Source of the DNA: a bacterium
GTDB lineage: Bacteria > Patescibacteriota > Minisyncoccia > Moranbacterales > GWC2-37-73
DNA length: 64,000 bases
Reading direction: 5' to 3'
Assembly (NCBI GenBank): GCA_037140955.1
Contig: JBAXDL010000005.1
Coordinates: 12,334 to 76,333 of the forward strand
The notes under the pieces were generated by a model that had not been told where the DNA came from, ran no database searches, and saw only the letters and a program-made list of their open reading frames with translations. This document shows positions 2,406 through 31,726 of the stretch, piece after piece; within the stretch, counting starts at the first letter, position 1; every line of letters starts with the position of its first letter. Made by a program: the position numbers and the translations under genes.

Positions 2406-4277
2406 ATGATTAGATTGCAAACAAAAAAAATTCAATTTATAAAATCGGATAAGTTTTTGTTGGGGTCGCTCTTTGTTGTGCTTGTTTTGCACTATGGAAA
2501 ACTTGTTTCTGCCTCAATTGATTTTTCATTGTTGGCTTTTTTTGCAAGTATTGCAACATTGCCTGTTTTGTATAGTGCCTATGAATCTCTTAGAAAAAAG
2601 AAGATCAATGTGGATTTGCTGGCTGGTGTGGCTCTGACTGTTTCACTGCTCAATCAGCAGTGGGCATCGGCTGTTTTTATTAATCTGATGCTAACTTCTG
2701 CCAGAATTTTTGATTTATATACACAAGACAGTGCACGCGATGCCATCAAGAGTTTGCTCAAACTTCGTCCGGATAGCGTGAAAATAAAAAAGGGAAATGA
2801 AATTGTTGAAGAATTGATTGCCAATATCAAAAAAGATGACCTGATTGTTGTTGAACTTGGCGAACGAATTGCAGTTGATGGTATTGTTGTTAGCGGGCAA
2901 GCCCAAATTGATCAATCATCACTCACTGGAGAGTCATTGCTCGTTGAGAAAAATGTTGGCGATACTGTTTTGAGTTCAACCATGAACATGTCTGGCTCTC
3001 TGATTGTGCGGGCTGAAAAAGTCGGAGAGGACACCACTTTTGAAAAAATGGTCAAATTGGTTGATCAATCACAAAAGGACAAGGCTGGAATTCAAACAAT
3101 AGCTGACAAGTTTACCGCTTGGTACATCACACTAACTTTTTTGGGTGCAATTTTGGTGTATGCTTTTTCAAGAGATTTGAATGTTGTTTTGTCTGTACTT
3201 CTGGTTACTTGCGCCGATGATATTGCGGTTGCTATTCCAATGGCTTTTTCTGCTGGAATGGCAAGTGCTGCCAGAAAAGGGATTATCATCAAGGGCGGTT
3301 CATTTTTGGAAGGCTTGATGCAGGTCAAGACAATTGTGGTTGACAAGACTGGCACATTGACTCGTGGAATGTTAAAAGTTGGTAGCGTGAAAGCATTTGG
3401 CGATAAAAAAGAGGAAGAAATTGTTTCTTTTGCAGCAAGTGCTGATTTTTTTTCGCAGCATCCTGTGGCGCGGGCTATAATTTCATATGCAAACAATAAC
3501 AACATTGAATTTGAAAAAACAGAAGAATTTGAGGAGCATTCAGGACAGGGGAGTCATGCAGTTTTGGGTGGAAAGAAAATTGTTTGTGGTAAACTTGCTT
3601 TTTTGCAAAATGAAGGTGTGAAAATTACTTTGCCTCAGCAGAAAATAATCGACAAAATCAAGAAAGATGGAGTCAGTAGTATGCTTTTGGTTGCCTACGA
3701 GAACAAGCTTGTGGGTCTTATTTTATTAGAGGATGAAGTGCGACCTGAAGCCAAAGAAACAATTAAAAGGTTGTATAAGCTTGGCATTGAAAATATTGTT
3801 ATGCTGACAGGTGATAATAGGAATGTTGCCAAAAATGTTGCAAATGAGCTTGGAATCAAAACCTTCCATGCCAATTTGTTGCCAGAGGATAAAATTAAAT
3901 ATATTAGGAAATATTTGAACAAGAAAAGCAAAGTCGCCATGATCGGGGATGGTGTCAATGATGCTGCTGCTTTGGCTTTGGCTGACATTGGAATCGCAAT
4001 GGGCGCGCTTGGCACAGATGTTGCAATTGAAGCTGCTGATGTGGCTCTCATGAAAGATGATTTTTCCAAGGTGGCTGAGGCAATTGAAATGGGTAGAGCG
4101 GTGGAAAAAATTTCTAGACAGGATTTTTGGTACTGGGGAATTGCAAATTCAATTGGTTTGGTGTTAGTTTTTACGAAAACAATAGGGCCGGAGGGGGCTG
4201 CTGCTTATAACTTTATTACTGATTTTTTCCCACTGCTAAATTCAATGAGAATGTTTGGCTTTAAGTTTAGAAAATAA
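2406..4277 (+). CDS. P1B-type (heavy-metal-like) P-type ATPase lacking an N-terminal metal-binding domain; non-canonical TM6 motif
   Basis: DKTGTLT phosphorylation site, GDGVNDAAAL hinge motif, SQHP motif (P1B hallmark); TM6 aligns to CopA but CPC is replaced by C-A-D (TCADD). Confidence 0.8.
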   Translation: MIRLQTKKIQFIKSDKFLLGSLFVVLVLHYGKLVSASIDFSLLAFFASIATLPVLYSAYESLRKKKINVDLLAGVALTVSLLNQQWASAVFINLMLTSARIFDLYTQDSARDAIKSLLKLRPDSVKIKKGNEIVEELIANIKKDDLIVVELGERIAVDGIVVSGQAQIDQSSLTGESLLVEKNVGDTVLSSTMNMSGSLIVRAEKVGEDTTFEKMVKLVDQSQKDKAGIQTIADKFTAWYITLTFLGAILVYAFSRDLNVVLSVLLVTCADDIAVAIPMAFSAGMASAARKGIIIKGGSFLEGLMQVKTIVVDKTGTLTRGMLKVGSVKAFGDKKEEEIVSFAASADFFSQHPVARAIISYANNNNIEFEKTEEFEEHSGQGSHAVLGGKKIVCGKLAFLQNEGVKITLPQQKIIDKIKKDGVSSMLLVAYENKLVGLILLEDEVRPEAKETIKRLYKLGIENIVMLTGDNRNVAKNVANELGIKTFHANLLPEDKIKYIRKYLNKKSKVAMIGDGVNDAAALALADIGIAMGALGTDVAIEAADVALMKDDFSKVAEAIEMGRAVEKISRQDFWYWGIANSIGLVLVFTKTIGPEGAAAYNFITDFFPLLNSMRMFGFKFRK

Positions 4278-4386: not shown

Positions 4387-4788
4387 ATGCAAAAAAATAA
4401 AAAGTACATTTTGTTGGCGGCAGCAATGTTGATAATCCTGGGATTGAGTTTTATGTATAAAAACAGAAATTCTGCAAGCAATGCTGATGTTGTTAGTAGC
4501 GTTGATGATGGTGGAATTGTTCTTTTCTTTGGTGACACTTGTCCTCATTGCAAAGAGCTTGCAAAAACACTGGAAGAAAAAAAGATGGCGGAAAAGGTGA
4601 AATTTTCAGAAAAAGAGGTGTATAGGAATGCTGGCAATGCCAAGCTTTTGATGGAAAAGGCCAAAAAATGTGGCTTCAAGGAAAGTGAAGTTGGTGTTCC
4701 GTTTTTGGTGGCTGAAGATGGAAAATGCTATGTGGGAAATCCTGATGTAATTAAATTTTTTGATGATAAAGTAAATGAAAATAAATAA
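4387..4788 (+). CDS. membrane-anchored thioredoxin-fold protein (CPHC active site)
   Basis: N-terminal TM helix then Trx-like 'FFGDTCPHCKEL' motif. Confidence 0.65.
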   Translation: MQKNKKYILLAAAMLIILGLSFMYKNRNSASNADVVSSVDDGGIVLFFGDTCPHCKELAKTLEEKKMAEKVKFSEKEVYRNAGNAKLLMEKAKKCGFKESEVGVPFLVAEDGKCYVGNPDVIKFFDDKVNENK

Positions 4789-5287
4789 AAAACTCATATC
4801 ATTTCTTGCGGTTGTTTCTTCATTTTTGATGGCTTCATCAGCCAAGGCGGTTTGTCCAATTTGCACAGTTGCTGTTGGCGCGGGGGTTGGATTTTCTCGT
4901 TATTTGGGAATTGATGACACAATTGCAGGACTTTGGATTGGCGGCCTGACCGTTTCAATGATCACTTGGACAATTGACTGGATGAATCGAAAAAATATTC
5001 GTTTCAAAATGAGAAAAATAGTAGTTGTTTTGGGGTATTATTTGATGATTGTTCCTCCGTTGTATTGGATGGGGATTATGGGACATCCTTTCAATAAAAT
5101 GCTTGGCATGGACAAGTTGCTGCTTGGGATAATTTTTGGGACAATTGCTTTTTCGATTGGTGCTATTTGGTATTATCAAATCAAGAAGAAAAACAATGGG
5201 CACAGTTATTTTCCTTTTCAAAAGGTTGTCATGCCGGTGTCCCCGTTGATTGTTTTGAGTGTGATATTTTATTTTTTAACTAAATAG
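4775..5287 (+). CDS. polytopic membrane protein with post-signal CPIC motif
   Basis: signal-peptide-like N-terminus, 'AVCPICTV', 3-4 hydrophobic helices; overlaps the previous gene by 14 nt, so probably co-translated. Confidence 0.5.
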   Translation: MKINKKLISFLAVVSSFLMASSAKAVCPICTVAVGAGVGFSRYLGIDDTIAGLWIGGLTVSMITWTIDWMNRKNIRFKMRKIVVVLGYYLMIVPPLYWMGIMGHPFNKMLGMDKLLLGIIFGTIAFSIGAIWYYQIKKKNNGHSYFPFQKVVMPVSPLIVLSVIFYFLTK

Positions 5288-5291
5288 CGAT

Positions 5292-5822
5292 ATGGAAAAT
5301 AAGATTAAAAGTTTGAGCGAATTTGTTGACAAGATTGATCAGATGAAAAAACAGGACAAAATGGATTTGTCTTCTGATCAGGATTTGAGCATTGCAATAA
5401 TGAATTTGATCAGCATTGAAGAACATTTCTTTTTTACTTCTCAAAAAACTGGAAAAGATGGCTATATTGACTTGTTGCAAGAGGTTCGAAAAATGCGAGG
5501 TGATTTGCTGCGAAAAATTATTACAGAATATGAAGGTGAGGTTTGGTGCATTTCTAAGCATCTTTTGGCAGCTTCAATGCGTTTGATGGAAGTTGGCACC
5601 AAGCAAAACGGCATGGGTAAGAAAGAAGAAGCAAAAGAAATGTTCACCAAAGCTTATGATTTGTATGGTATGTTTTGGGGGCTTAATATGAAACTTATTC
5701 CTGTTGATGAAATCAAGAAAATTGATGACAACGCTTTGAATGTGCATGACACCAAGGCAGAGGGTTTTTCTGGTAAGTTGAGAGACTTGGTAAAAAAAGC
5801 TATTGATTGTTGCATCGAATAG
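5292..5822 (+). CDS. hypothetical protein
   Basis: 176-aa ORF. Confidence 0.45.
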   Translation: MENKIKSLSEFVDKIDQMKKQDKMDLSSDQDLSIAIMNLISIEEHFFFTSQKTGKDGYIDLLQEVRKMRGDLLRKIITEYEGEVWCISKHLLAASMRLMEVGTKQNGMGKKEEAKEMFTKAYDLYGMFWGLNMKLIPVDEIKKIDDNALNVHDTKAEGFSGKLRDLVKKAIDCCIE

Positions 5823-9831: not shown

Positions 9832-12561
9832 ATGGAAAAACAAATATACAATTTAACAGTAGAAGAAATTTTGCAGAAGTTTGAGGTTAGCGCAAAGGGA
9901 TTGTCTTCAGCTGAAGCGCAAAAGAGATTGAAAGAATATGGCAAAAATGCAGTAGAGAAAAAACAATCATGGAGTTGGTTTTCTCTGCTATTAAATCAGT
10001 TTAATGATGCTTTGGTGTGGATTTTGCTGGTGGCAGCAACACTTGCTTTTTTCTTTGGCGAGTTTCGTGACACGACGATTATTTTGTTGATTGTTTTTAT
10101 TAATGCTGCAATTGGTTTTTTTCAGGAATATAAAGCAGAAAGGACACTTGAGAATATAAAGCGCTTGGCATCTGATCGGGCTGTTGTTTTGCGCGATGGT
10201 CAACGGGTTGAAATCGATGCTGCTTTCTTGGTTCCTGGTGATGTCATTATTCTCGCTTCGGGTGACACGGTGGCGGCAGATGCATATTTGCTTGAGAGTT
10301 ATGATGTATATGCCAATGAATTTATTTTTACTGGAGAGTCAAAATCTAGCAAAAAACAAATCGGAGCAATTGAGGCAGCATCACTGGTGTTGGCTGATAT
10401 GGATAATATGATTTTCATGGGAACATCTTTGACAAGAGGAAGTGCAACTGCGCTTGTGACTGGGACTGGCATGAAAACGCAACTTGGACAGATTGCACAT
10501 ATGGTCACGGAGGTCAAAGATGAAGACACACCACTGCAAAAACAAATGCGAACACTTGGGCGCGATGTTTCCGTGTTGGCAGTTCTGATTGGAACACTTG
10601 TTATGATCGCTGGATATTATAGTAAGATCTCAATGTATGAAAATTTTCTCTTTGCGCTTGCACTTTCTGTTTCGGTTGTGCCAGAAGGTCTTCCAGCAGC
10701 AATCTCAGTGGCGCTTTCATTGGGCATGAAAAAACTTTTGAAATATAATGTGCTGGCAAAAAAATTAAACGCGGTGGAAACTTTGGCCTCTGTTTCTGTG
10801 ATTTGCTCGGATAAAACAGGAACGATTACTCGAAATGAATTGATGGTTACTGACATTGTTGTTGGCGACGATGAAATCACTGTTGATGGACAAGGTTATC
10901 AGGAAGATGGCGATTTCTTTTCTTTTGGACGCAAAATAAACATTGCAAATTATCCTCAATTGGAAAAATTATTTCGTATTGGAGTGATTTGTAATGATAG
11001 TGCGATAACAAAAAAGGATAGTAATATTGCAATTTCTGGTGATCCAACGGAAGGCGCATTGCTGGTGGTGGCAAGAAAATTTCAAAAAAAGAAAGATTAT
11101 TTTCAACTTGATTGGAATAAAATAAATGAAAATCCTTTTTCTTCTGATCGCATGAGAATGAGTGTGATTTGCAAAAACAAAAATTCCAATGAGGTGATGT
11201 CATTTGTGAAGGGCTCTCCTGATGTACTGATTGATCTTTGCTCTTTCAAGCAAGTTGGTGATCAGTTGATTGAGTTTGGTGAGCAAGAAAAGCAAAAAGC
11301 CAAAAATATTTATAATGCAATGTCAAAAAAGGCTTTGCGAGTTTTGGCATTCGCACAAAAGGATCTAAGTCATGTCGAACAAAGCAGTGTCTTGGAAGAG
11401 GCTGAGAATAATTTGATTTGGGTTGGCATGATGGGAATGATTGATCCTCCACGCACTGATGTGCACATGGCAATTGATGAATGCATCAAGTCTGGCATAA
11501 AAGTTATTATGATAACGGGGGACTATGAAATTACAGCCGAGGCTATTGCCAAAAAAGTTGGTCTTTTGAAGTCATCAAATTCGCAAGTTATCAATGGAAA
11601 AACTCTGGACACTCTTTCTGACAAAGAGTTGATTGCAATAATCTTGGAAAAAGAAGTTGCTTTTGCGCGCATTGCGCCTGAACAAAAATTGCGTATTGCA
11701 ACATTGCTCAAAAAAAGTGGTGCGGTGATTGCCATGACTGGAGATGGCGTGAATGATGCGCCAGCACTCAAGCGTGCTGACATTGGCGTGGCAATGGGTG
11801 TCATTGGCACTGATGTTGCCAAGGAAGCTGCTGACATGATTTTGTTGGATGATAATTTTGCTTCTATTGTCAGAGCCATCAAGCAGGGTAGAACGATTTA
11901 TCAAAATTTAAAGAAATTTGTATATTACGTTTTCACTTCAAATGTCAGTGAATTTTTCACCGTTATTATTGGTGTGCTGCTTCAGATTCCAGCTCCAATA
12001 ACCGCTGTGCAAATTTTGGCGATTGACCTTGGAACTGATATTTTTCCGTCATTTTCACTGGGAATGGAAAAGTCTGAGCCAAATATTATGGATAGAAAAC
12101 CCTTTAGTATTAAGGAAAAAGTTATCGATAGTGGTGGTGTTTGGCGTTTGCTGCGAGTTGGGCTAATTATGGCGCTTGGGGCAATAGTGGCCTTTATTTT
12201 GTCTATGAAAAGGGGTGGCTGGGACTTTGGGAATAAAATTGACGTTAGTAGCGTATTATACATTAGGTCCACTTCAGCAGCCTATGCGGTTCTTTCCATG
12301 ACTCAAATGGCAAATTTGATGCAAGCACGCAGTGAGACACTTTCTGTTTTTGCGATTGGTTTTTTCAAAAACATGTATGCGATTGGCGCTATTGTGATTT
12401 CTGTTGGAATGTTGCTAATGTTTATGTACGTTCCATTTTTGCAGAAATATTTGCATATGCTGCCGATTACCTGGAAAGATTGGATTGCTGTTTTGGTTGC
12501 AACTATTGTAGTGTTTGTTTTTGAAGAGGGAAGGAAATCTGAAAAATTGAAAAAAGTATAA
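9832..12561 (+). CDS. P2-type cation-transporting ATPase (Ca2+/Mg2+ family)
   Basis: DKTGTIT, PEGLPA (type II hallmark), GDGVNDAPALKRADIGVAMG; 909 aa with N- and C-terminal TM bundles. Confidence 0.9.
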   Translation: MEKQIYNLTVEEILQKFEVSAKGLSSAEAQKRLKEYGKNAVEKKQSWSWFSLLLNQFNDALVWILLVAATLAFFFGEFRDTTIILLIVFINAAIGFFQEYKAERTLENIKRLASDRAVVLRDGQRVEIDAAFLVPGDVIILASGDTVAADAYLLESYDVYANEFIFTGESKSSKKQIGAIEAASLVLADMDNMIFMGTSLTRGSATALVTGTGMKTQLGQIAHMVTEVKDEDTPLQKQMRTLGRDVSVLAVLIGTLVMIAGYYSKISMYENFLFALALSVSVVPEGLPAAISVALSLGMKKLLKYNVLAKKLNAVETLASVSVICSDKTGTITRNELMVTDIVVGDDEITVDGQGYQEDGDFFSFGRKINIANYPQLEKLFRIGVICNDSAITKKDSNIAISGDPTEGALLVVARKFQKKKDYFQLDWNKINENPFSSDRMRMSVICKNKNSNEVMSFVKGSPDVLIDLCSFKQVGDQLIEFGEQEKQKAKNIYNAMSKKALRVLAFAQKDLSHVEQSSVLEEAENNLIWVGMMGMIDPPRTDVHMAIDECIKSGIKVIMITGDYEITAEAIAKKVGLLKSSNSQVINGKTLDTLSDKELIAIILEKEVAFARIAPEQKLRIATLLKKSGAVIAMTGDGVNDAPALKRADIGVAMGVIGTDVAKEAADMILLDDNFASIVRAIKQGRTIYQNLKKFVYYVFTSNVSEFFTVIIGVLLQIPAPITAVQILAIDLGTDIFPSFSLGMEKSEPNIMDRKPFSIKEKVIDSGGVWRLLRVGLIMALGAIVAFILSMKRGGWDFGNKIDVSSVLYIRSTSAAYAVLSMTQMANLMQARSETLSVFAIGFFKNMYAIGAIVISVGMLLMFMYVPFLQKYLHMLPITWKDWIAVLVATIVVFVFEEGRKSEKLKKV

Positions 12562-19335: not shown

Positions 19336-19471
19336 TGAATCCGGTAGTGAAAATTCAAAAGAAGGGAATATCGGATTGTTTCTGGAATGTTTTTAATCCA
19401 ATATGTAGCATTTTTATATAATTAAGAATTTTTTGAGCAAAGCTCATTTGAATTTCTACTACCGGATGAAT
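19336..19471. repeat. about 22-bp imperfect inverted repeat bracketing the secD 5' leader and start codon
   Basis: atgaatccggtagtgaaaattc ... gaatttctactaccggatgaat; the right arm contains the secD ATG. Confidence 0.5.
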
Positions 19472-21142
19472 ATAAAGAAAAAATTACAATTAAAATTTGG
19501 TGGGATTATTGTTTTGGCTTTAATGTGCGGCTTGTTTTCATATCCTCAAATTGTTAGCAAGGCTCCTCCTGTCTATGATTTTTTCAACAAGTTCAAGCTC
19601 AATCTCGGTCTTGATTTGCAAGGGGGATTTCATTTGGAATATAAGGCTGATGTTTCTAATATTGATTCAACAAAAGTTGCCGAGGCTATGCAAGGTGCGC
19701 AGACCGTCATCGAAAGACGAGTTAACGCTTTTGGTGTTGGCGAGCCATTGGTTCAAACAGCAAAAAGTGGACAAGAGAATCGTATTATTGTTGAATTGCC
19801 AGGAATAAAGGATATAGAAGAGGCAAAAACAAAAATCAAAGATGCTCCATTGTTGGAATTTAAAGAAGAAGGTCCGGTTGATGCTCAAGTTCAGCAAATG
19901 TTTGATCAAGCAAATCAGCAGGCAAAAGAAAAGGCTGCAAAAATTCTTGATGAGGTGAAAAATGGTGGTGATTTTGCGCAACTTGCAAAAGACAATAGTG
20001 AGGATCCAGGCTCAAAAGACAAAGGTGGTGATTTGGACTTTGTGAAAAAAGGAGCCTTTGTTCCTGAATTTGATAAAGTTTTGTTTGATTCAAATTTGAA
20101 GAATGGGGATATTTATCCTGATTTGGTTGAATCAACTTATGGATGGCATATTATCAAATTCATTGAATCTCGCGGTGAGGGTGCTGATTTGGAAGTTCAT
20201 GCTCAGCATATTCTTTTTTTGAAAAAAGATCCTTCTCAATATGATCAGTTCAAATATCAAACAACAGGATTGACTGGAAAAAATTTGAAAAGTGCTACTG
20301 CGCAATACTCTCAAGGACAAGGCCTTGGTGAGCCAGAGGTTGCTTTGCAATTTGATGAAGAAGGAACAAATCTTTTTGCTGAGTTGACCAAGAAAAACCT
20401 TGGCAAAAAAATAGCCATCTTTCTTGATGGAGAGTTGCAAATAGCTCCAACTGTTCAGGTTGAAATTACTAATGGTCAAGCGGTTATTACCGGAAATTAT
20501 ACTTTCAAAGAAGCAAAGGATATTTCTGACAGATTGAATCAAGGAGCGCTTCCAGTTCCTTTGACCTTGGTTGGACAACAGAGTGTTGAGGCAACTCTTG
20601 GGGCTGATTCGCTGCGAAGCATTTTGATTGCTGGTGCAATTGGACTTGGTGCAGTGATTGTCTTCATGCTTATCTTCTATCGCTTCTTGGGATTGGTAGC
20701 CTCACTGGCTTTGCTTATTTATACTGTTGCAATGATTACGCTTTTCAAGATGACTGGAATTACTTTGACACTTTCTGGTATTGCAGGGTTTGTGCTTTCA
20801 ATTGGAATGGCGGTGGACGCAAATATTTTGATTTTTGAAAGAACAAAAGAAGAAATTAGAGGTGGTCGCTCAATTGCAAACTCATTGGAAGAAGGATTCA
20901 AGCGTGCTTGGACTTCAATTCGTGATGGAAATGTTTCTTCATTGCTCACTTCTGGAATTTTGTACTTGATGGGAACTGGATTTGTGAAAGGATTTGCGGC
21001 TGCACTTTTCATTGGAGTAGTGGTTTCCATGTTTACTGCGGTGGTGATTACTCGTACAATGCTTAAGTTTATTATTAGTGATTGGATTCATGGAAGAACA
21101 TGGATGGTTGGAGTTAGAAAAAAGGATATTAAAAATGGATAA
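19466..21142 (+). CDS. secD: protein-export membrane protein SecD with an embedded parvulin (PpiC/PrsA-type) PPIase domain
   Basis: SecD P1 start 'GLDLQGGFH', C-terminal TM bundle 'GMAVDANILIFER'; internal segment 'NGGDFAQLAKDNSEDPGSKDKGGDLDFV...STYGWHIIK' matches the parvulin fold; the track ORF starts at an alternative TTG (19433). Confidence 0.85.
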   Translation: MNIKKKLQLKFGGIIVLALMCGLFSYPQIVSKAPPVYDFFNKFKLNLGLDLQGGFHLEYKADVSNIDSTKVAEAMQGAQTVIERRVNAFGVGEPLVQTAKSGQENRIIVELPGIKDIEEAKTKIKDAPLLEFKEEGPVDAQVQQMFDQANQQAKEKAAKILDEVKNGGDFAQLAKDNSEDPGSKDKGGDLDFVKKGAFVPEFDKVLFDSNLKNGDIYPDLVESTYGWHIIKFIESRGEGADLEVHAQHILFLKKDPSQYDQFKYQTTGLTGKNLKSATAQYSQGQGLGEPEVALQFDEEGTNLFAELTKKNLGKKIAIFLDGELQIAPTVQVEITNGQAVITGNYTFKEAKDISDRLNQGALPVPLTLVGQQSVEATLGADSLRSILIAGAIGLGAVIVFMLIFYRFLGLVASLALLIYTVAMITLFKMTGITLTLSGIAGFVLSIGMAVDANILIFERTKEEIRGGRSIANSLEEGFKRAWTSIRDGNVSSLLTSGILYLMGTGFVKGFAAALFIGVVVSMFTAVVITRTMLKFIISDWIHGRTWMVGVRKKDIKNG

Positions 21143-29629: not shown

Positions 29630-31726
29630 ATGGCTCAAAAAAACGAAATTGCATTTTTTGCAAAAACAAATTTTAGAAATCAAGAAAGAGTTTTCGGCAT
29701 CAAAACTGATGATCGCACTCGACACATGTATATCATTGGAAAGACCGGTATGGGAAAAACAAACCTGCTGGAAAATTTGGTGGTGCAGGACATTAGAAAC
29801 GGTCATGGTATTTGTTATATTGATCCACATGGTGACACGGCTGAAAAATTGCTTAGAGCGATTCCCGCTGAACGCATTAATGATGTTATTTATTTGAATC
29901 CTTCTGATCAAAATTATCCTTTGGCTTTCAACGTGATGGAATCGGTTGATCCTGACTATCGTCACTTGGTGGCATCGGGCTTGATTGGTGTTTTCAAAAA
30001 AATCTGGGCTGATTCCTGGGGACCACGCTTGGAGTATATTTTGCGTAATGCAATTTTGGCACTTTTGGAATATCCTGGGAGCACCTTGCTGGGTGTGACC
30101 AGGATTTTGGTGGACAAGAAATATCGCGAAAGAGTGGTTGAAAAGGTGACTGATCCGGTGATTAGGCAATTTTGGGTGGATGAATTTCCAAAATGGAGTG
30201 ACAAGGTTTTGCAAGAAGTTGTTTCTCCGATTCAAAACAAGGTTGGACAATTCTTGTCATCTTCTTTGATTCGAAACATTGTTGGTCAAACAAAATCTTC
30301 TTTTGACATTCGAAATGCAATGGACACGCAAAAGATTTTGATCATCAATCTTTCCAAAGGAAGAATTGGTGAAGACAATGGTGCGCTTTTGGGAGCCATG
30401 ATGATCACCAAGATTCAATTGGCAGCCATGGGACGCGTGGACATAGCGGAGGCTGATCGTAAAGATTTTTATTTATATGTTGATGAGTTTCAAAATTTTG
30501 CCACAGAATCTTTTGCCAACATTTTGTCTGAAGCTCGAAAATATCGCTTGAATTTGATTTTGGCAAATCAATATATCACTCAAATTGATGAAAAAGTTCG
30601 TGATGCTATTTTTGGTAATGCTGGCACGATCATTTCTTTTCGTGTGGGTGCGATGGATGCTGAATTTTTGGAAAAAGAATTTATGCCAGTTTTTGTGCAA
30701 AATGACATCGTGAATTTGCCAAAATATAACATATATTTGAAGCTCATGATTGATGGAATTGCAGGTGATGCTTTTTCTGCTACTGTTTTGCCACCTGTTT
30801 ACATCGGTGACACGGCTGAAAATGAGGAAAAGATTATTGCAGCTTCGCGTGAGCGTTATGCTTCTAGTAAGGAAGAAGTTGAAGACAAAATTTCACGTTG
30901 GGCTGGTGTGATGCCTGCAGCAGGCTTTACTACTGTCAACAAGGCTCCTGAGCAAGTTGCTCAAAATCCAAATAATATTAAATATGTTCATCCGGTGAGC
31001 AGCCCTCAGCAAAGATCAAATTCAATACAGAATTTTGCTCCAAAAGCAGTTGCTGCCCCAGTTGCACTAAAAGCTCAGCAACCAGTGCGAAATGTTGCCT
31101 CAAGCGCTCCTGTAAGCGCTCCAGTGCCTATTGCTGCTCCTTTGTCTCAAAAATCAGTGCAGCGGCCAGTTGAAGAACAAAAAAAGCCCTATGTGCAGGA
31201 TGATTTGGGGGAATATAATGAAATTCCAAAAAATGAGGCTGTACAATCAATTGCAGCTGAGCCAGAAGAAAATCATGACTATTATGTGAAGCCAATTGAT
31301 GATCGGCCAAAATTTGATGCTGTTTGCGACATGTGCGCGGACAATATTCAAATTCCTTTTGCTCCAGATGGAAAAAGACCAACTTTTTGCAAGGATTGCT
31401 TGAAAGAATATCAACGCATGAATGCTAAGGAGAAATTGAAGCAGGAAGAGAAAATAAAGCGACAGCAAGAAGAAGCGCAGGTTCAAGAGGTGCCAACTGC
31501 TTCGCCAGCAAAAACATATCCAAAAAAGTTTGAAAGCAAGTCTGCTACAAATCAAGCGCCAAGACAAGAAAGAAAAACCGAACACAAGGCTTTTGTTTCT
31601 AAGGATAGGCCCATGTCACTTTCGCAAATGCAGCATATTGCACCCAAGCAATTCAAGCCAACTCGCGTCCGTCCACAAATAAACTTGAGTGAAGTGAGAG
31701 AAATGATTAATAAAAACAAAGAATAG
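29630..31726 (+). CDS. FtsK/HerA-superfamily P-loop ATPase (T4 coupling-protein / DUF87-like) with low-complexity linker and C-terminal C4 zinc ribbon
   Basis: 'RHMYIIGKTGMGKT' Walker A in T4CP-like context, 'IDPHGD', Walker B 'YVDEFQNF', 'RKYRLNLILANQ'; C-terminal 'CDMCADN...FCKDC'. Confidence 0.7.
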   Translation: MAQKNEIAFFAKTNFRNQERVFGIKTDDRTRHMYIIGKTGMGKTNLLENLVVQDIRNGHGICYIDPHGDTAEKLLRAIPAERINDVIYLNPSDQNYPLAFNVMESVDPDYRHLVASGLIGVFKKIWADSWGPRLEYILRNAILALLEYPGSTLLGVTRILVDKKYRERVVEKVTDPVIRQFWVDEFPKWSDKVLQEVVSPIQNKVGQFLSSSLIRNIVGQTKSSFDIRNAMDTQKILIINLSKGRIGEDNGALLGAMMITKIQLAAMGRVDIAEADRKDFYLYVDEFQNFATESFANILSEARKYRLNLILANQYITQIDEKVRDAIFGNAGTIISFRVGAMDAEFLEKEFMPVFVQNDIVNLPKYNIYLKLMIDGIAGDAFSATVLPPVYIGDTAENEEKIIAASRERYASSKEEVEDKISRWAGVMPAAGFTTVNKAPEQVAQNPNNIKYVHPVSSPQQRSNSIQNFAPKAVAAPVALKAQQPVRNVASSAPVSAPVPIAAPLSQKSVQRPVEEQKKPYVQDDLGEYNEIPKNEAVQSIAAEPEENHDYYVKPIDDRPKFDAVCDMCADNIQIPFAPDGKRPTFCKDCLKEYQRMNAKEKLKQEEKIKRQQEEAQVQEVPTASPAKTYPKKFESKSATNQAPRQERKTEHKAFVSKDRPMSLSQMQHIAPKQFKPTRVRPQINLSEVREMINKNKE

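Follow-up and report, generated by a model that had tools for sequence, protein, structure and literature searches.

In the stretch of DNA analyzed here (the window: 64,000 nucleotides of contig JBAXDL010000005.1, from a member of the Patescibacteria), the gene at 2406..4277 encodes a P-type ATPase with the fold of the heavy-metal (P1B) pumps, in which the positions expected to hold the transported ion very probably form a rebuilt site with changed selectivity. The best overall explanation, in which we place roughly even confidence, is that of a competent P1B-fold pump with an oxygen-rich site like that of the P2-type pumps, which would move a harder divalent cation. P1B classes and their substrates are predicted from the Cys-Pro-x motif of membrane helix M4 together with a few residues in M5 and M6, and the clade to which this pump belongs, called CADD here after its M4 motif, departs from this rule at almost all of these ligand positions together. 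The departure runs toward coordination by oxygen ligands as in Ca2+, Mn2+, and Na+ pumps, and it is found in a large and strongly conserved clade of the Candidate Phyla Radiation. The gene and its motifs are as follows.

2406..4277, + strand: gene for the P1B-fold P-type ATPase of the "CADD" clade; complete open reading frame, 623 amino acids (aa) plus stop
2925..2936, + strand: TGES, A-domain dephosphorylation motif; invariant in the family alignment
3198..3248, + strand: M4 segment LLVTCADDIAVAIPMAF, residues 265-281 (TM6 in the Arguello numbering); counterpart of CPCALxxxTP in CopA/ZntA
3210..3221, + strand: C269-A270-D271-D272 (C-A-D alone, 3210-3218)
3342..3356, + strand: DKTGT, phosphorylation motif (D313); invariant in the family
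3453..3464, + strand: SQHP, residues 350-353, the S-x-H-P of the nucleotide-binding domain; family consensus SEHP
3807..3818, + strand: TGDN, P-domain motif; invariant in the family
3945..3962, + strand: GDGVND, P-domain hinge motif; GDGxND invariant in the family
4146..4148, + strand: N581 in M5; opposite ZntA K693, CopA N785, and the Asn of SNVSE in the P2 pump of the window
4209..4232, + strand: M6 motif N602-F-I-T605-D606-F-F-P609; the P2-pump M6 pattern D/N-x-x-T-D-x-x-P

Scaffold and M4 register

The protein matches the E1-E2_ATPase and Hydrolase (HAD) domains of Pfam, and the four hallmarks of the P-type superfamily (DKTGT, TGES, TGDN, and GDGxND) are all present. Among the NCBIfam hidden Markov models (HMMs), it passes the cutoff for heavy metal translocating P-type ATPases (TIGR01525; 499.9 bits, cutoff 346.25) and that for the Cd/Zn type (TIGR01512; 408 bits, cutoff 313.5) and fails that for the Cu type (TIGR01511; 370.9 bits, cutoff 397). 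It has the eight transmembrane (TM) helices of P1B pumps (MA, MB, and M1-M6, without M7-M10) and their S-x-H-P motif, whose S350 and H352 do not vary across the family alignment and whose P353 is conserved to at least 90%. The solved structures closest in sequence are LpCopA (3rfu; E = 5.6e-86), sCoaT (7qbz), AfCopA, and ZntA. A preliminary description of this DNA had called the protein a P1B-type ATPase with SQHP and DKTGT intact and with no N-terminal heavy-metal-associated (HMA) domain, and the evidence agrees on each count: TIGR01525, the PDB matches, and Foldseek for the type, the two motifs as listed, and Pfam, which matches no HMA domain in the 623-aa pump. A cytosolic metal-binding domain (HMA or His-rich) is common in P1B pumps, not obligatory, and neither a CxxC nor a His-rich N-terminal extension was found among the CADD-like homologues checked. 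Judged by its motifs, the catalytic apparatus is intact on a P1B scaffold and the pump apparently catalytically competent.

An AlphaFold2 (AF2) model built from 67 family sequences, with a mean pLDDT (per-residue confidence) of 82.5 and a pTM (overall fold confidence) of 0.75, has eight membrane helices (residues 3-31, 36-63, 69-82, 86-116, 232-255, 258-290, 554-589, and 595-618), with M4 broken at 268-270 and M6 kinked at 606. A TM4 broken by one or more prolines is a general feature (PMC10654040), and here M4 is predicted to show the characteristic unwinding where the canonical site lies, despite the missing Pro. When the PDB was searched with Foldseek, P1B structures came first (CopA 4bbj, ZntA 4umw, AfCopA 7r0g, and sCoaT 7qbz), followed by KdpB and then by P3 and P2 pumps.

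The preliminary description had also placed C-A-D opposite the CPC of CopA, at 3200-3232, an interval that lies inside the M4 segment (3198-3248) and whose start is offset by two bases from that of the segment. The same pairing is obtained with HMMER against PDB chains, where CADdiavaiP aligns gap-free opposite CPCalglatP of LpCopA 3rfu (LIIACPCALGLATPM) and CAD falls opposite the SPC of sCoaT 7qbz, and with MAFFT, where the triplet was aligned with E. coli ZntA and CopA (reference sequences from NC_000913) residue for residue as listed below. Counted from the last residue of the triplet, the phosphorylated Asp comes 42 residues later in the query (D271 to D313), and likewise in E. coli ZntA (C394 to D436), CopA, KdpB, and MgtA; because this spacing is invariant, the M4 register is fixed. 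At the position 42 before the phosphorylated Asp, CopA and ZntA have Cys, P2 pumps and MgtA have Glu, and KdpB has Thr. Realignment placed no CPx or xPC motif in the M4 helix, and the idea of another CPx motif elsewhere in the helix was rejected, since none exists. The conserved unit is the four residues C-A-D-D, not just C-A-D.

Ion-site residues and the CADD clade

Conservation of the residues at and around the putative site was counted over 151 full-length family members. Equivalences with ZntA and CopA come from MAFFT and those with sCoaT from the HMMER alignment.

C269: 149/151; ZntA C392, CopA C479
A270: 150/151; ZntA P393, CopA P480
D271: 150/151; ZntA C394, CopA C481
D272: 148/151; ZntA A395, CopA A482
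P278 (second P1B proline): 151/151; ZntA P401, CopA P488
N581: 150/151; ZntA K693, CopA N785
N602: 151/151; ZntA D714, CopA M813, sCoaT H657
T605: 147/151; CopA S816
D606: 151/151; CopA S817, sCoaT T661
P609: 148/151; ZntA V721, CopA V820

By alignment, the changed positions are those of metal ligands or of the built-in counter-ion in characterized P1B pumps. The ligand set of CopA is established through the work of Arguello and co-workers. The substitutions are one-directional, in that oxygen ligands (Asp, Asn, Thr) replace either sulfur and nitrogen ligands (Cys, Met, His) or a positively charged Lys, and the resulting set of one Cys, three Asp, two Asn, and one Thr is homologous to ligand positions of both P1B and P2 pumps. 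Roles have been described for the K693-D714 pair of ZntA and for H657 of sCoaT (PMC8880997); the ZntA counter-ion pair is lost here, both positions being Asn. Ser takes the place of Cys269 in two members (SAED and SADD), which indicates that the thiol is not absolutely required. The altered ion selectivity that the preliminary description had suggested from its M4 aspartate is therefore better supported than before, as a reading of the sequence: the site as a whole is rebuilt in a P2-like manner, with CADD in M4, Asn where ZntA has Lys in M5, and NFxTDFxP in M6.

The ion-site pattern of the P2 pumps, an M4 acid 42 residues before the phosphorylated Asp together with D/N-x-x-T-D-x-x-P in M6, is present in full. 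The window itself holds a pump of that type, with which the CADD family could be compared.

9832-12561, + strand: 909-aa P2-type ATPase, 5.5 kb downstream, with Cation_ATPase_N and Cation_ATPase_C

This P2 pump has PEGL in M4, SNVSE in M5, and DLGTDIFP in M6. When the CADD family profile was aligned to it with hhalign (probability 99.9), the P-E of PEGL fell opposite A270-D271, the Asn of SNVSE opposite N581, and the D, T, D, and P of DLGTDIFP opposite N602, T605, D606, and P609. In SERCA, the triad E309/N796/D800 makes up site II, which is the sole site in SPCA and LMCA1-type pumps; the assignment reportedly goes back to the structure of Toyoshima in 2000 and to later work. The SERCA counterparts of the pattern are E309 in M4 and N796, T799, and D800 in M6. 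The Ca2+ ligands described for SERCA are E309, E771, N796, T799, D800, and E908 (PMC3145875).

As far as its sequence tells, the CADD pump is P2-like at the ion site yet outside the P2 family. It has in common with SERCA site II, SPCA/PMR1, and LMCA1 the M4 acid at -42, the M5 Asn, and the M6 motif, whereas it has 8 TM helices instead of 10, no Cation_ATPase_N or Cation_ATPase_C, the SxHP nucleotide site, an M6 that ends in LNSxRL, Ala for the Pro of PEGL, Asp for its Glu, and a Cys two residues before the acid. The idea of a chimera that took its C-terminus from a P2 pump was considered and rejected, because the end of M6 is of the P1B type and the tree described below puts the whole core inside P1B.

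The P2 pump of the window (9832-12561, +) scores below all NCBIfam equivalog cutoffs, with PMR1/SERCA-type as the best model. Its M5 and M6 sequences (TSNVSE and IDLGTDIFPS) fit the alpha subunits of Na,K- and non-gastric H,K-ATPases better than Ca2+ pumps, and judged by these motifs it may be a bacterial Na+/K+-type pump.

CADD is the signature of a clade, not an isolated substitution. The 120 nearest database clusters (54-100% identity) all have CADD or a near variant, and 119 of them carry the last-helix motif AA(Y/F)NFxTDFxPxxNS. In a HMMER search of 1.84 billion representatives, CADD persisted to ~34-40% identity and then switched abruptly to CPC, SPC, APC, and others, and two profile searches started from the most divergent members showed this abrupt switch again at the clade edge; in the second, all hits with at least 646 bits had C(A/V)D(D/E) and N(F/L)xx(T/S)D(F/L)xP, and directly below them came proteins with CPC, an HMA domain, and "AHxxPD" in M6. 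Conservation of C-A-D in orthologues had been proposed as a check in the preliminary description, and 297 homologues, 34-100% identical to the query where measured, have CADD (289), CADE (3), or one each of SAED, SADD, CIDE, CAVD, and CVDE. The first residue is Cys in 295 of these motifs, and N-x-x-T/S-D-x-x-P is found in M6 of 291 of the 297, while [ND]xx[TS]DxxP after the P domain occurs in none of the 112 non-CADD P1B representatives. With this many homologues, and with the identical protein present in NCBI, JGI, Logan, and ENA, the motif is neither chance nor a sequencing error.

A neighbor-joining (NJ) tree was built from 159 core sequences with MgtA as the root; in it, the CADD sequences were monophyletic and inside P1B in 37 of 40 bootstraps. 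ZntA and CopA lay nearer to the clade than KdpB and MgtA did, and the clade had no stable sister group; it stands as a clade of its own, and no characterized subgroup has the same motif. A canonical motif on realignment and a place in such a subgroup were the two outcomes that the preliminary description had named as refuting it, and the results favored it on both. A KdpB-like pump dependent on a partner was rejected on this distance and on the lack of a conserved partner. The organism names given by the sources, on which the taxonomy of the clade rests, are all Patescibacteria: Moranbacteria/Moraniibacteriota, the Parcubacteria group, Minisyncoccia, Paceibacterota, and Azam-, Lipton-, Niyogi-, Komeili-, Uhr-, and Portnoybacteria. 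A scan of genome contigs with a one-protein query, whose back-translated patterns were poor, returned only three distant loci of the CPC type.

Described P1B subgroups are recognized by their M4 motifs, namely CPC (P1B-1 and P1B-2), CPH (P1B-3, now merged into P1B-1), SPC (P1B-4), PCP (P1B-5), SCA (P1B-6), and CSC (P1B-7) (PMC13460109; PMC7558416). The preliminary description went too far in calling CPC invariant in P1B pumps, as SPC, CPH, PCP, SCA, CSC, and APC variants have all been described (PMC13460109). Pro-less M4 motifs (CSCA, YSCG, and GACG) also occur among the P1B representatives. Loss of Pro alone is thus not unique; what is new is the exchange of Cys for Asp together with the coordinated changes in M5 and M6. 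By motif comparison, the seven described subgroups all lack an acid in the third place of the M4 triplet and NxxTDxxP in M6, and CADD differs from the general CPx/xPC tripeptide in having no Pro, no Cys at the third position, and only the first Cys.

The likenesses and differences between the query and each subgroup are as follows. (i) With P1B-2 (ZntA, CadA), it has in common the 8-TM P1B fold, SxHP, the spacing from M4 to DKTGT, the TIGR01512 match, Foldseek rank 2 (4umw), and the first Cys and second M4 Pro of CPCxxxxxxP. The P1B-2 signature (CPC, M5 Lys, and M6 Asp in DxG) is nevertheless lacking, with Pro393 changed to Ala, Cys394 to Asp with an extra adjoining Asp, K693 to Asn (N581), and D714 to Asn (N602); the query also has a new Thr-Asp-x-x-Pro one turn further along M6 and no N-terminal HMA domain, so that only the generic HMM is passed. 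(ii) P1B-4 pumps (sCoaT, CtpD, PfeT) likewise lack a classical N-terminal metal-binding domain, have ~620-680 aa, and have a single Cys in the M4 motif (PMC8880997), and HMMER aligns query 34-620 to 7qbz 66-675, reaching the last helix, with N602 and D606 on H657 and T661. In the query, by contrast, the Cys is first in the triplet, not third; Pro, His, and Glu are missing; there are two adjacent M4 Asp; CAD and NFITD stand opposite the SPC and HEGST (pattern HEGxT) of sCoaT; and the clade is separate. (iii) P1B-1 (CopA) supplies the top PDB sequence match (3rfu) and the top Foldseek match (4bbj), and the Asn of its M5 YN is kept as N581. Its signature (CPC, YN, and MxxSS) is otherwise lost, with Ala for the Tyr of YN, Asn for Met813, Thr/Asp for Ser816/Ser817, and Asp for the second Cys, in addition to the absent HMA domain and the failed TIGR01511 cutoff. 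(iv) P1B-6 and P1B-7, both poorly characterized (PMC13460109), also have an M4 triplet without the canonical Pro, whereas they keep Cys at the -42 position, with no acid there, lack NxxTDxxP in M6, and do not group stably with the CADD clade. P1B-5, P1B-6, and P1B-7 are set apart from CADD by motif only, and representatives with TPCP, CSCA, or YSCG fall outside the CADD clade.

The pump is thus of the P1B type by HMM, topology, and nucleotide-site motif, lacks CPx/xPC and the signature of every subgroup, and is best filed as an undescribed P1B subgroup with a P2-like ion site. No description of the CADD motif or clade was found in full-text literature searches, in which the classification of Smith et al. 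(2014) was represented by the papers that cite it. The source annotations ("cation-translocating" or "heavy metal translocating" P-type ATPase and, in JGI, "Cu+/Cd2+/Zn2+-exporting ATPase") are probably wrong in detail.

Two other non-canonical P1B groups came to light, whose proteins (P0233, P0262, P0434, P0444, P0462, and P0413-P0418) lie outside the window. One, with an example in a Flavobacterium, has S-P-(I/T/A)-E in M4, with the acid one residue after the usual Cys position, and "H-x-x-P-D" in M6. The other is the group that borders the CADD clade in profile scores (CPC, HMA, and M6 "AHxxPD"; Nitrospirota and Jordarchaeum), whose M6 Asp is common to it and the CADD clade.

Candidate cargo ions

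The mechanism that we propose for the CADD pump is that of an ordinary E1/E2 phosphoenzyme cycle in which the intramembrane site would have been rebuilt from sulfur ligands to an oxygen-rich site (CADD in M4, Asn581 in M5, and Asn602/Thr605/Asp606 in M6). The changed residues may form a single occluded cation site at the unwound M4, and the preferred ion would be harder than Cu+, Ag+, Cd2+, or Pb2+. Since an M4 acid combined with an M6 N-x-x-T-D-x-x-P is the arrangement of the P2-type Ca2+/Mn2+/Na+ pumps, a harder divalent cation would be the one exported. Transport would presumably be outward, as in all characterized P1B pumps. Dephosphorylation is likely to be coupled to protonation and H+ counter-transport, as in P2 pumps, because the Lys-Asp counter-ion pair has become Asn-Asn and three carboxylates have been added. 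By analogy, the cargo may tentatively be named as Ca2+ and/or Mn2+, held at one site II like that of SPCA or LMCA1, although we give this assignment slightly less than even credence. A fuller version, in which the SERCA/SPCA site II was re-created on a minimal 8-helix, 620-aa P1B scaffold to give a housekeeping Ca2+ (and/or Mn2+) exporter of the Parcubacteria-type Patescibacteria, we regard as rather unlikely.

Several points weigh against this explanation. (i) Cys269 is kept almost throughout the 151 members, and Ca2+ and Mg2+ do not have thiolate ligands; a Cys so well kept speaks for a borderline metal (Fe2+, Zn2+, Co2+) or for a role other than as a ligand. (ii) The M4 Pro, which exposes backbone carbonyls in P2 pumps, is absent. 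(iii) The P2 pump of the window could already handle Ca2+, though its site looks Na,K-ATPase-like. (iv) The literature searches found no experimental data on any clade member. (v) The tree is distance-based and was built without curated P1B-1 to P1B-7 references. (vi) The spatial clustering of the putative ligand residues is deduced from homology to solved P1B and P2 sites.

The first of these points leads to a different possibility, that the pump exports a transition metal in the P1B-2/P1B-4 range (Zn2+, Fe2+, Co2+, Ni2+), bound by Cys269 and carboxylates in a manner comparable to the Cys2Asp of ZntA, and that its role may lie in metal homeostasis or in metallating exported enzymes. We consider this a serious alternative, though possible rather than probable. 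The near-invariant first Cys, both in the 151 members and in the 297 motifs, fits it well, as do the passed Cd/Zn-type cutoff and the P1B-4-like combination of a missing HMA domain, one M4 Cys, and ligand positions that fall on H657/T661 of sCoaT (PMC8880997), and P1B-4 pumps export Fe2+ (PMC10654040). In one lineage, moreover, the pump gene follows 9 nt after the genes for VanY and two M14 carboxypeptidases, which are Zn enzymes, on the same strand. On the other side, the second Cys, the Lys of ZntA, and the His and Glu of sCoaT are all missing, and up to seven O/S side chains suggest a coordination number above that of tetrahedral Zn2+. The M6 motif is of the P2 type and has no parallel in the 112 other P1B representatives, and the neighborhood is unconserved, with no adjacent metal-sensing regulator.

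A pump for a monovalent cation or proton (Na+, K+, or H+), which would energize the membrane or maintain Na+/K+ homeostasis in cells with minimal bioenergetics, appears very unlikely. Acid-rich M4/M6 sites with D/N-x-x-T-D are also found in Na,K- and H,K-ATPases, and P-type H+ pumps (AHA2/Pma1) use a single M6 Asp; the gene looks constitutive and housekeeping, and an AI-2E/UPF0118 transporter gene lies beside the pump at two unrelated loci. However, we know of no P1B-lineage pump that moves monovalent alkali cations alone, and the P1A relative KdpB needs KdpA, whereas no conserved partner gene is found here. Three carboxylates would be unusual for one monovalent ion, and a P2 pump whose site resembles that of the Na,K-ATPase is already encoded in the window. 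Finally, a degenerate, non-transporting protein (a pseudo-transporter or sensor) or an artefact of assembly or annotation, to which the loss of the canonical CPC and M4 Pro might point, is effectively excluded by conservation, as all catalytic motifs are intact and invariant, the replacement residues are at least 97% conserved among relatives 34-100% identical, the same sequence comes from four independent sources, and the AF2 model is confident with M4 unwound.

If a hard-cation cargo for the CADD pump is correct, the selectivity of P-type ATPases would be swappable between subfamilies by about six residues on a fixed scaffold, and the pump would provide a compact natural template for selectivity studies or engineering. 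The automatic "Cu+/Cd2+/Zn2+-exporting ATPase" labels from JGI, which feed into counts of metal-resistance genes in metagenomes, would be corrected as well. Were Ca2+ the cargo, this would be the first P-type ATPase of the heavy-metal lineage for an alkaline-earth cation, probably with proton counter-transport. The subgroup with its P2-like ion site would in itself surprise specialists in P-type ATPases, yet the motif diversity of P1B pumps is already known to be broad. The question bears on cation balance in ultra-small bacteria poor in transporters.

Genomic neighborhood

The window has a G+C content of 36.9% and includes genes for SecA, a SecDF-peptidyl-prolyl isomerase (PPIase) fusion, aminoacyl-tRNA synthetases, DnaK, and an ADP-forming acetyl-CoA synthetase, a content that fits a Patescibacteria genome. 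Across eight other clade loci, no conserved neighbor, partner subunit, or metal-sensing regulator of the pump was found. No riboswitch was detected either, as neither the window nor seven related loci gave an Rfam match at or above the gathering score, one tRNA excepted. A permissive Rfam scan upstream of the pump gene gave only chance-level matches, and the counts from a promoter/terminator scan were not above the shuffled expectation. Because neither conserved neighbors, nor a metal regulator, nor a riboswitch accompany it, the pump looks like a constitutive, stand-alone housekeeping pump. In the 64-kb window as a whole, no Rfam family, tRNA included, reached its gathering score.

Three genes follow the pump directly, and they show no synteny with it in an 80%-identical orthologue (locus L014).

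4387-4788, + strand: membrane-anchored thioredoxin-like protein with CPHC; first gene downstream of the pump
4775-5287, + strand: 170-aa multi-pass membrane protein with CPIC after a signal sequence, no Pfam match; overlaps the thioredoxin-like gene
5292-5822, + strand: 176-aa protein ending in CCIE, no Pfam match; third gene downstream

A tight same-strand run in a Paceibacterota lineage consists of the genes for VanY, two M14 carboxypeptidases, and, at its end, the CADD pump, with gaps of 3-18 nt (L012, 2181-6842; L013, 554-5215). The three upstream products belong to Zn-dependent peptidase families, which is a possible hint at metal supply to exported enzymes. The AI-2E/UPF0118 transporter (PF01594) that directly adjoins the pump is found at L010 (6989-8029) and on the contig of P0036, and a small DUF333 protein lies near the pump at L010 (4577-4966) and L015 (412-840), in surroundings that are unrelated in other respects; with two loci each, the sample is too small for these recurrences to be called significant.

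Two further genes of the window are unusual in their own right. The SecD/SecF-type protein at 19433-21142 (+) has a PPIC-type Rotamase_3 domain inserted between SecD_1st and the P1 head subdomain, an unusual fusion. At 29630-31726 (+), amid housekeeping genes, lies a gene for a 698-aa homologue of the TraG/VirD4/TrwB-like type IV coupling proteins with a treble-clef zinc finger.

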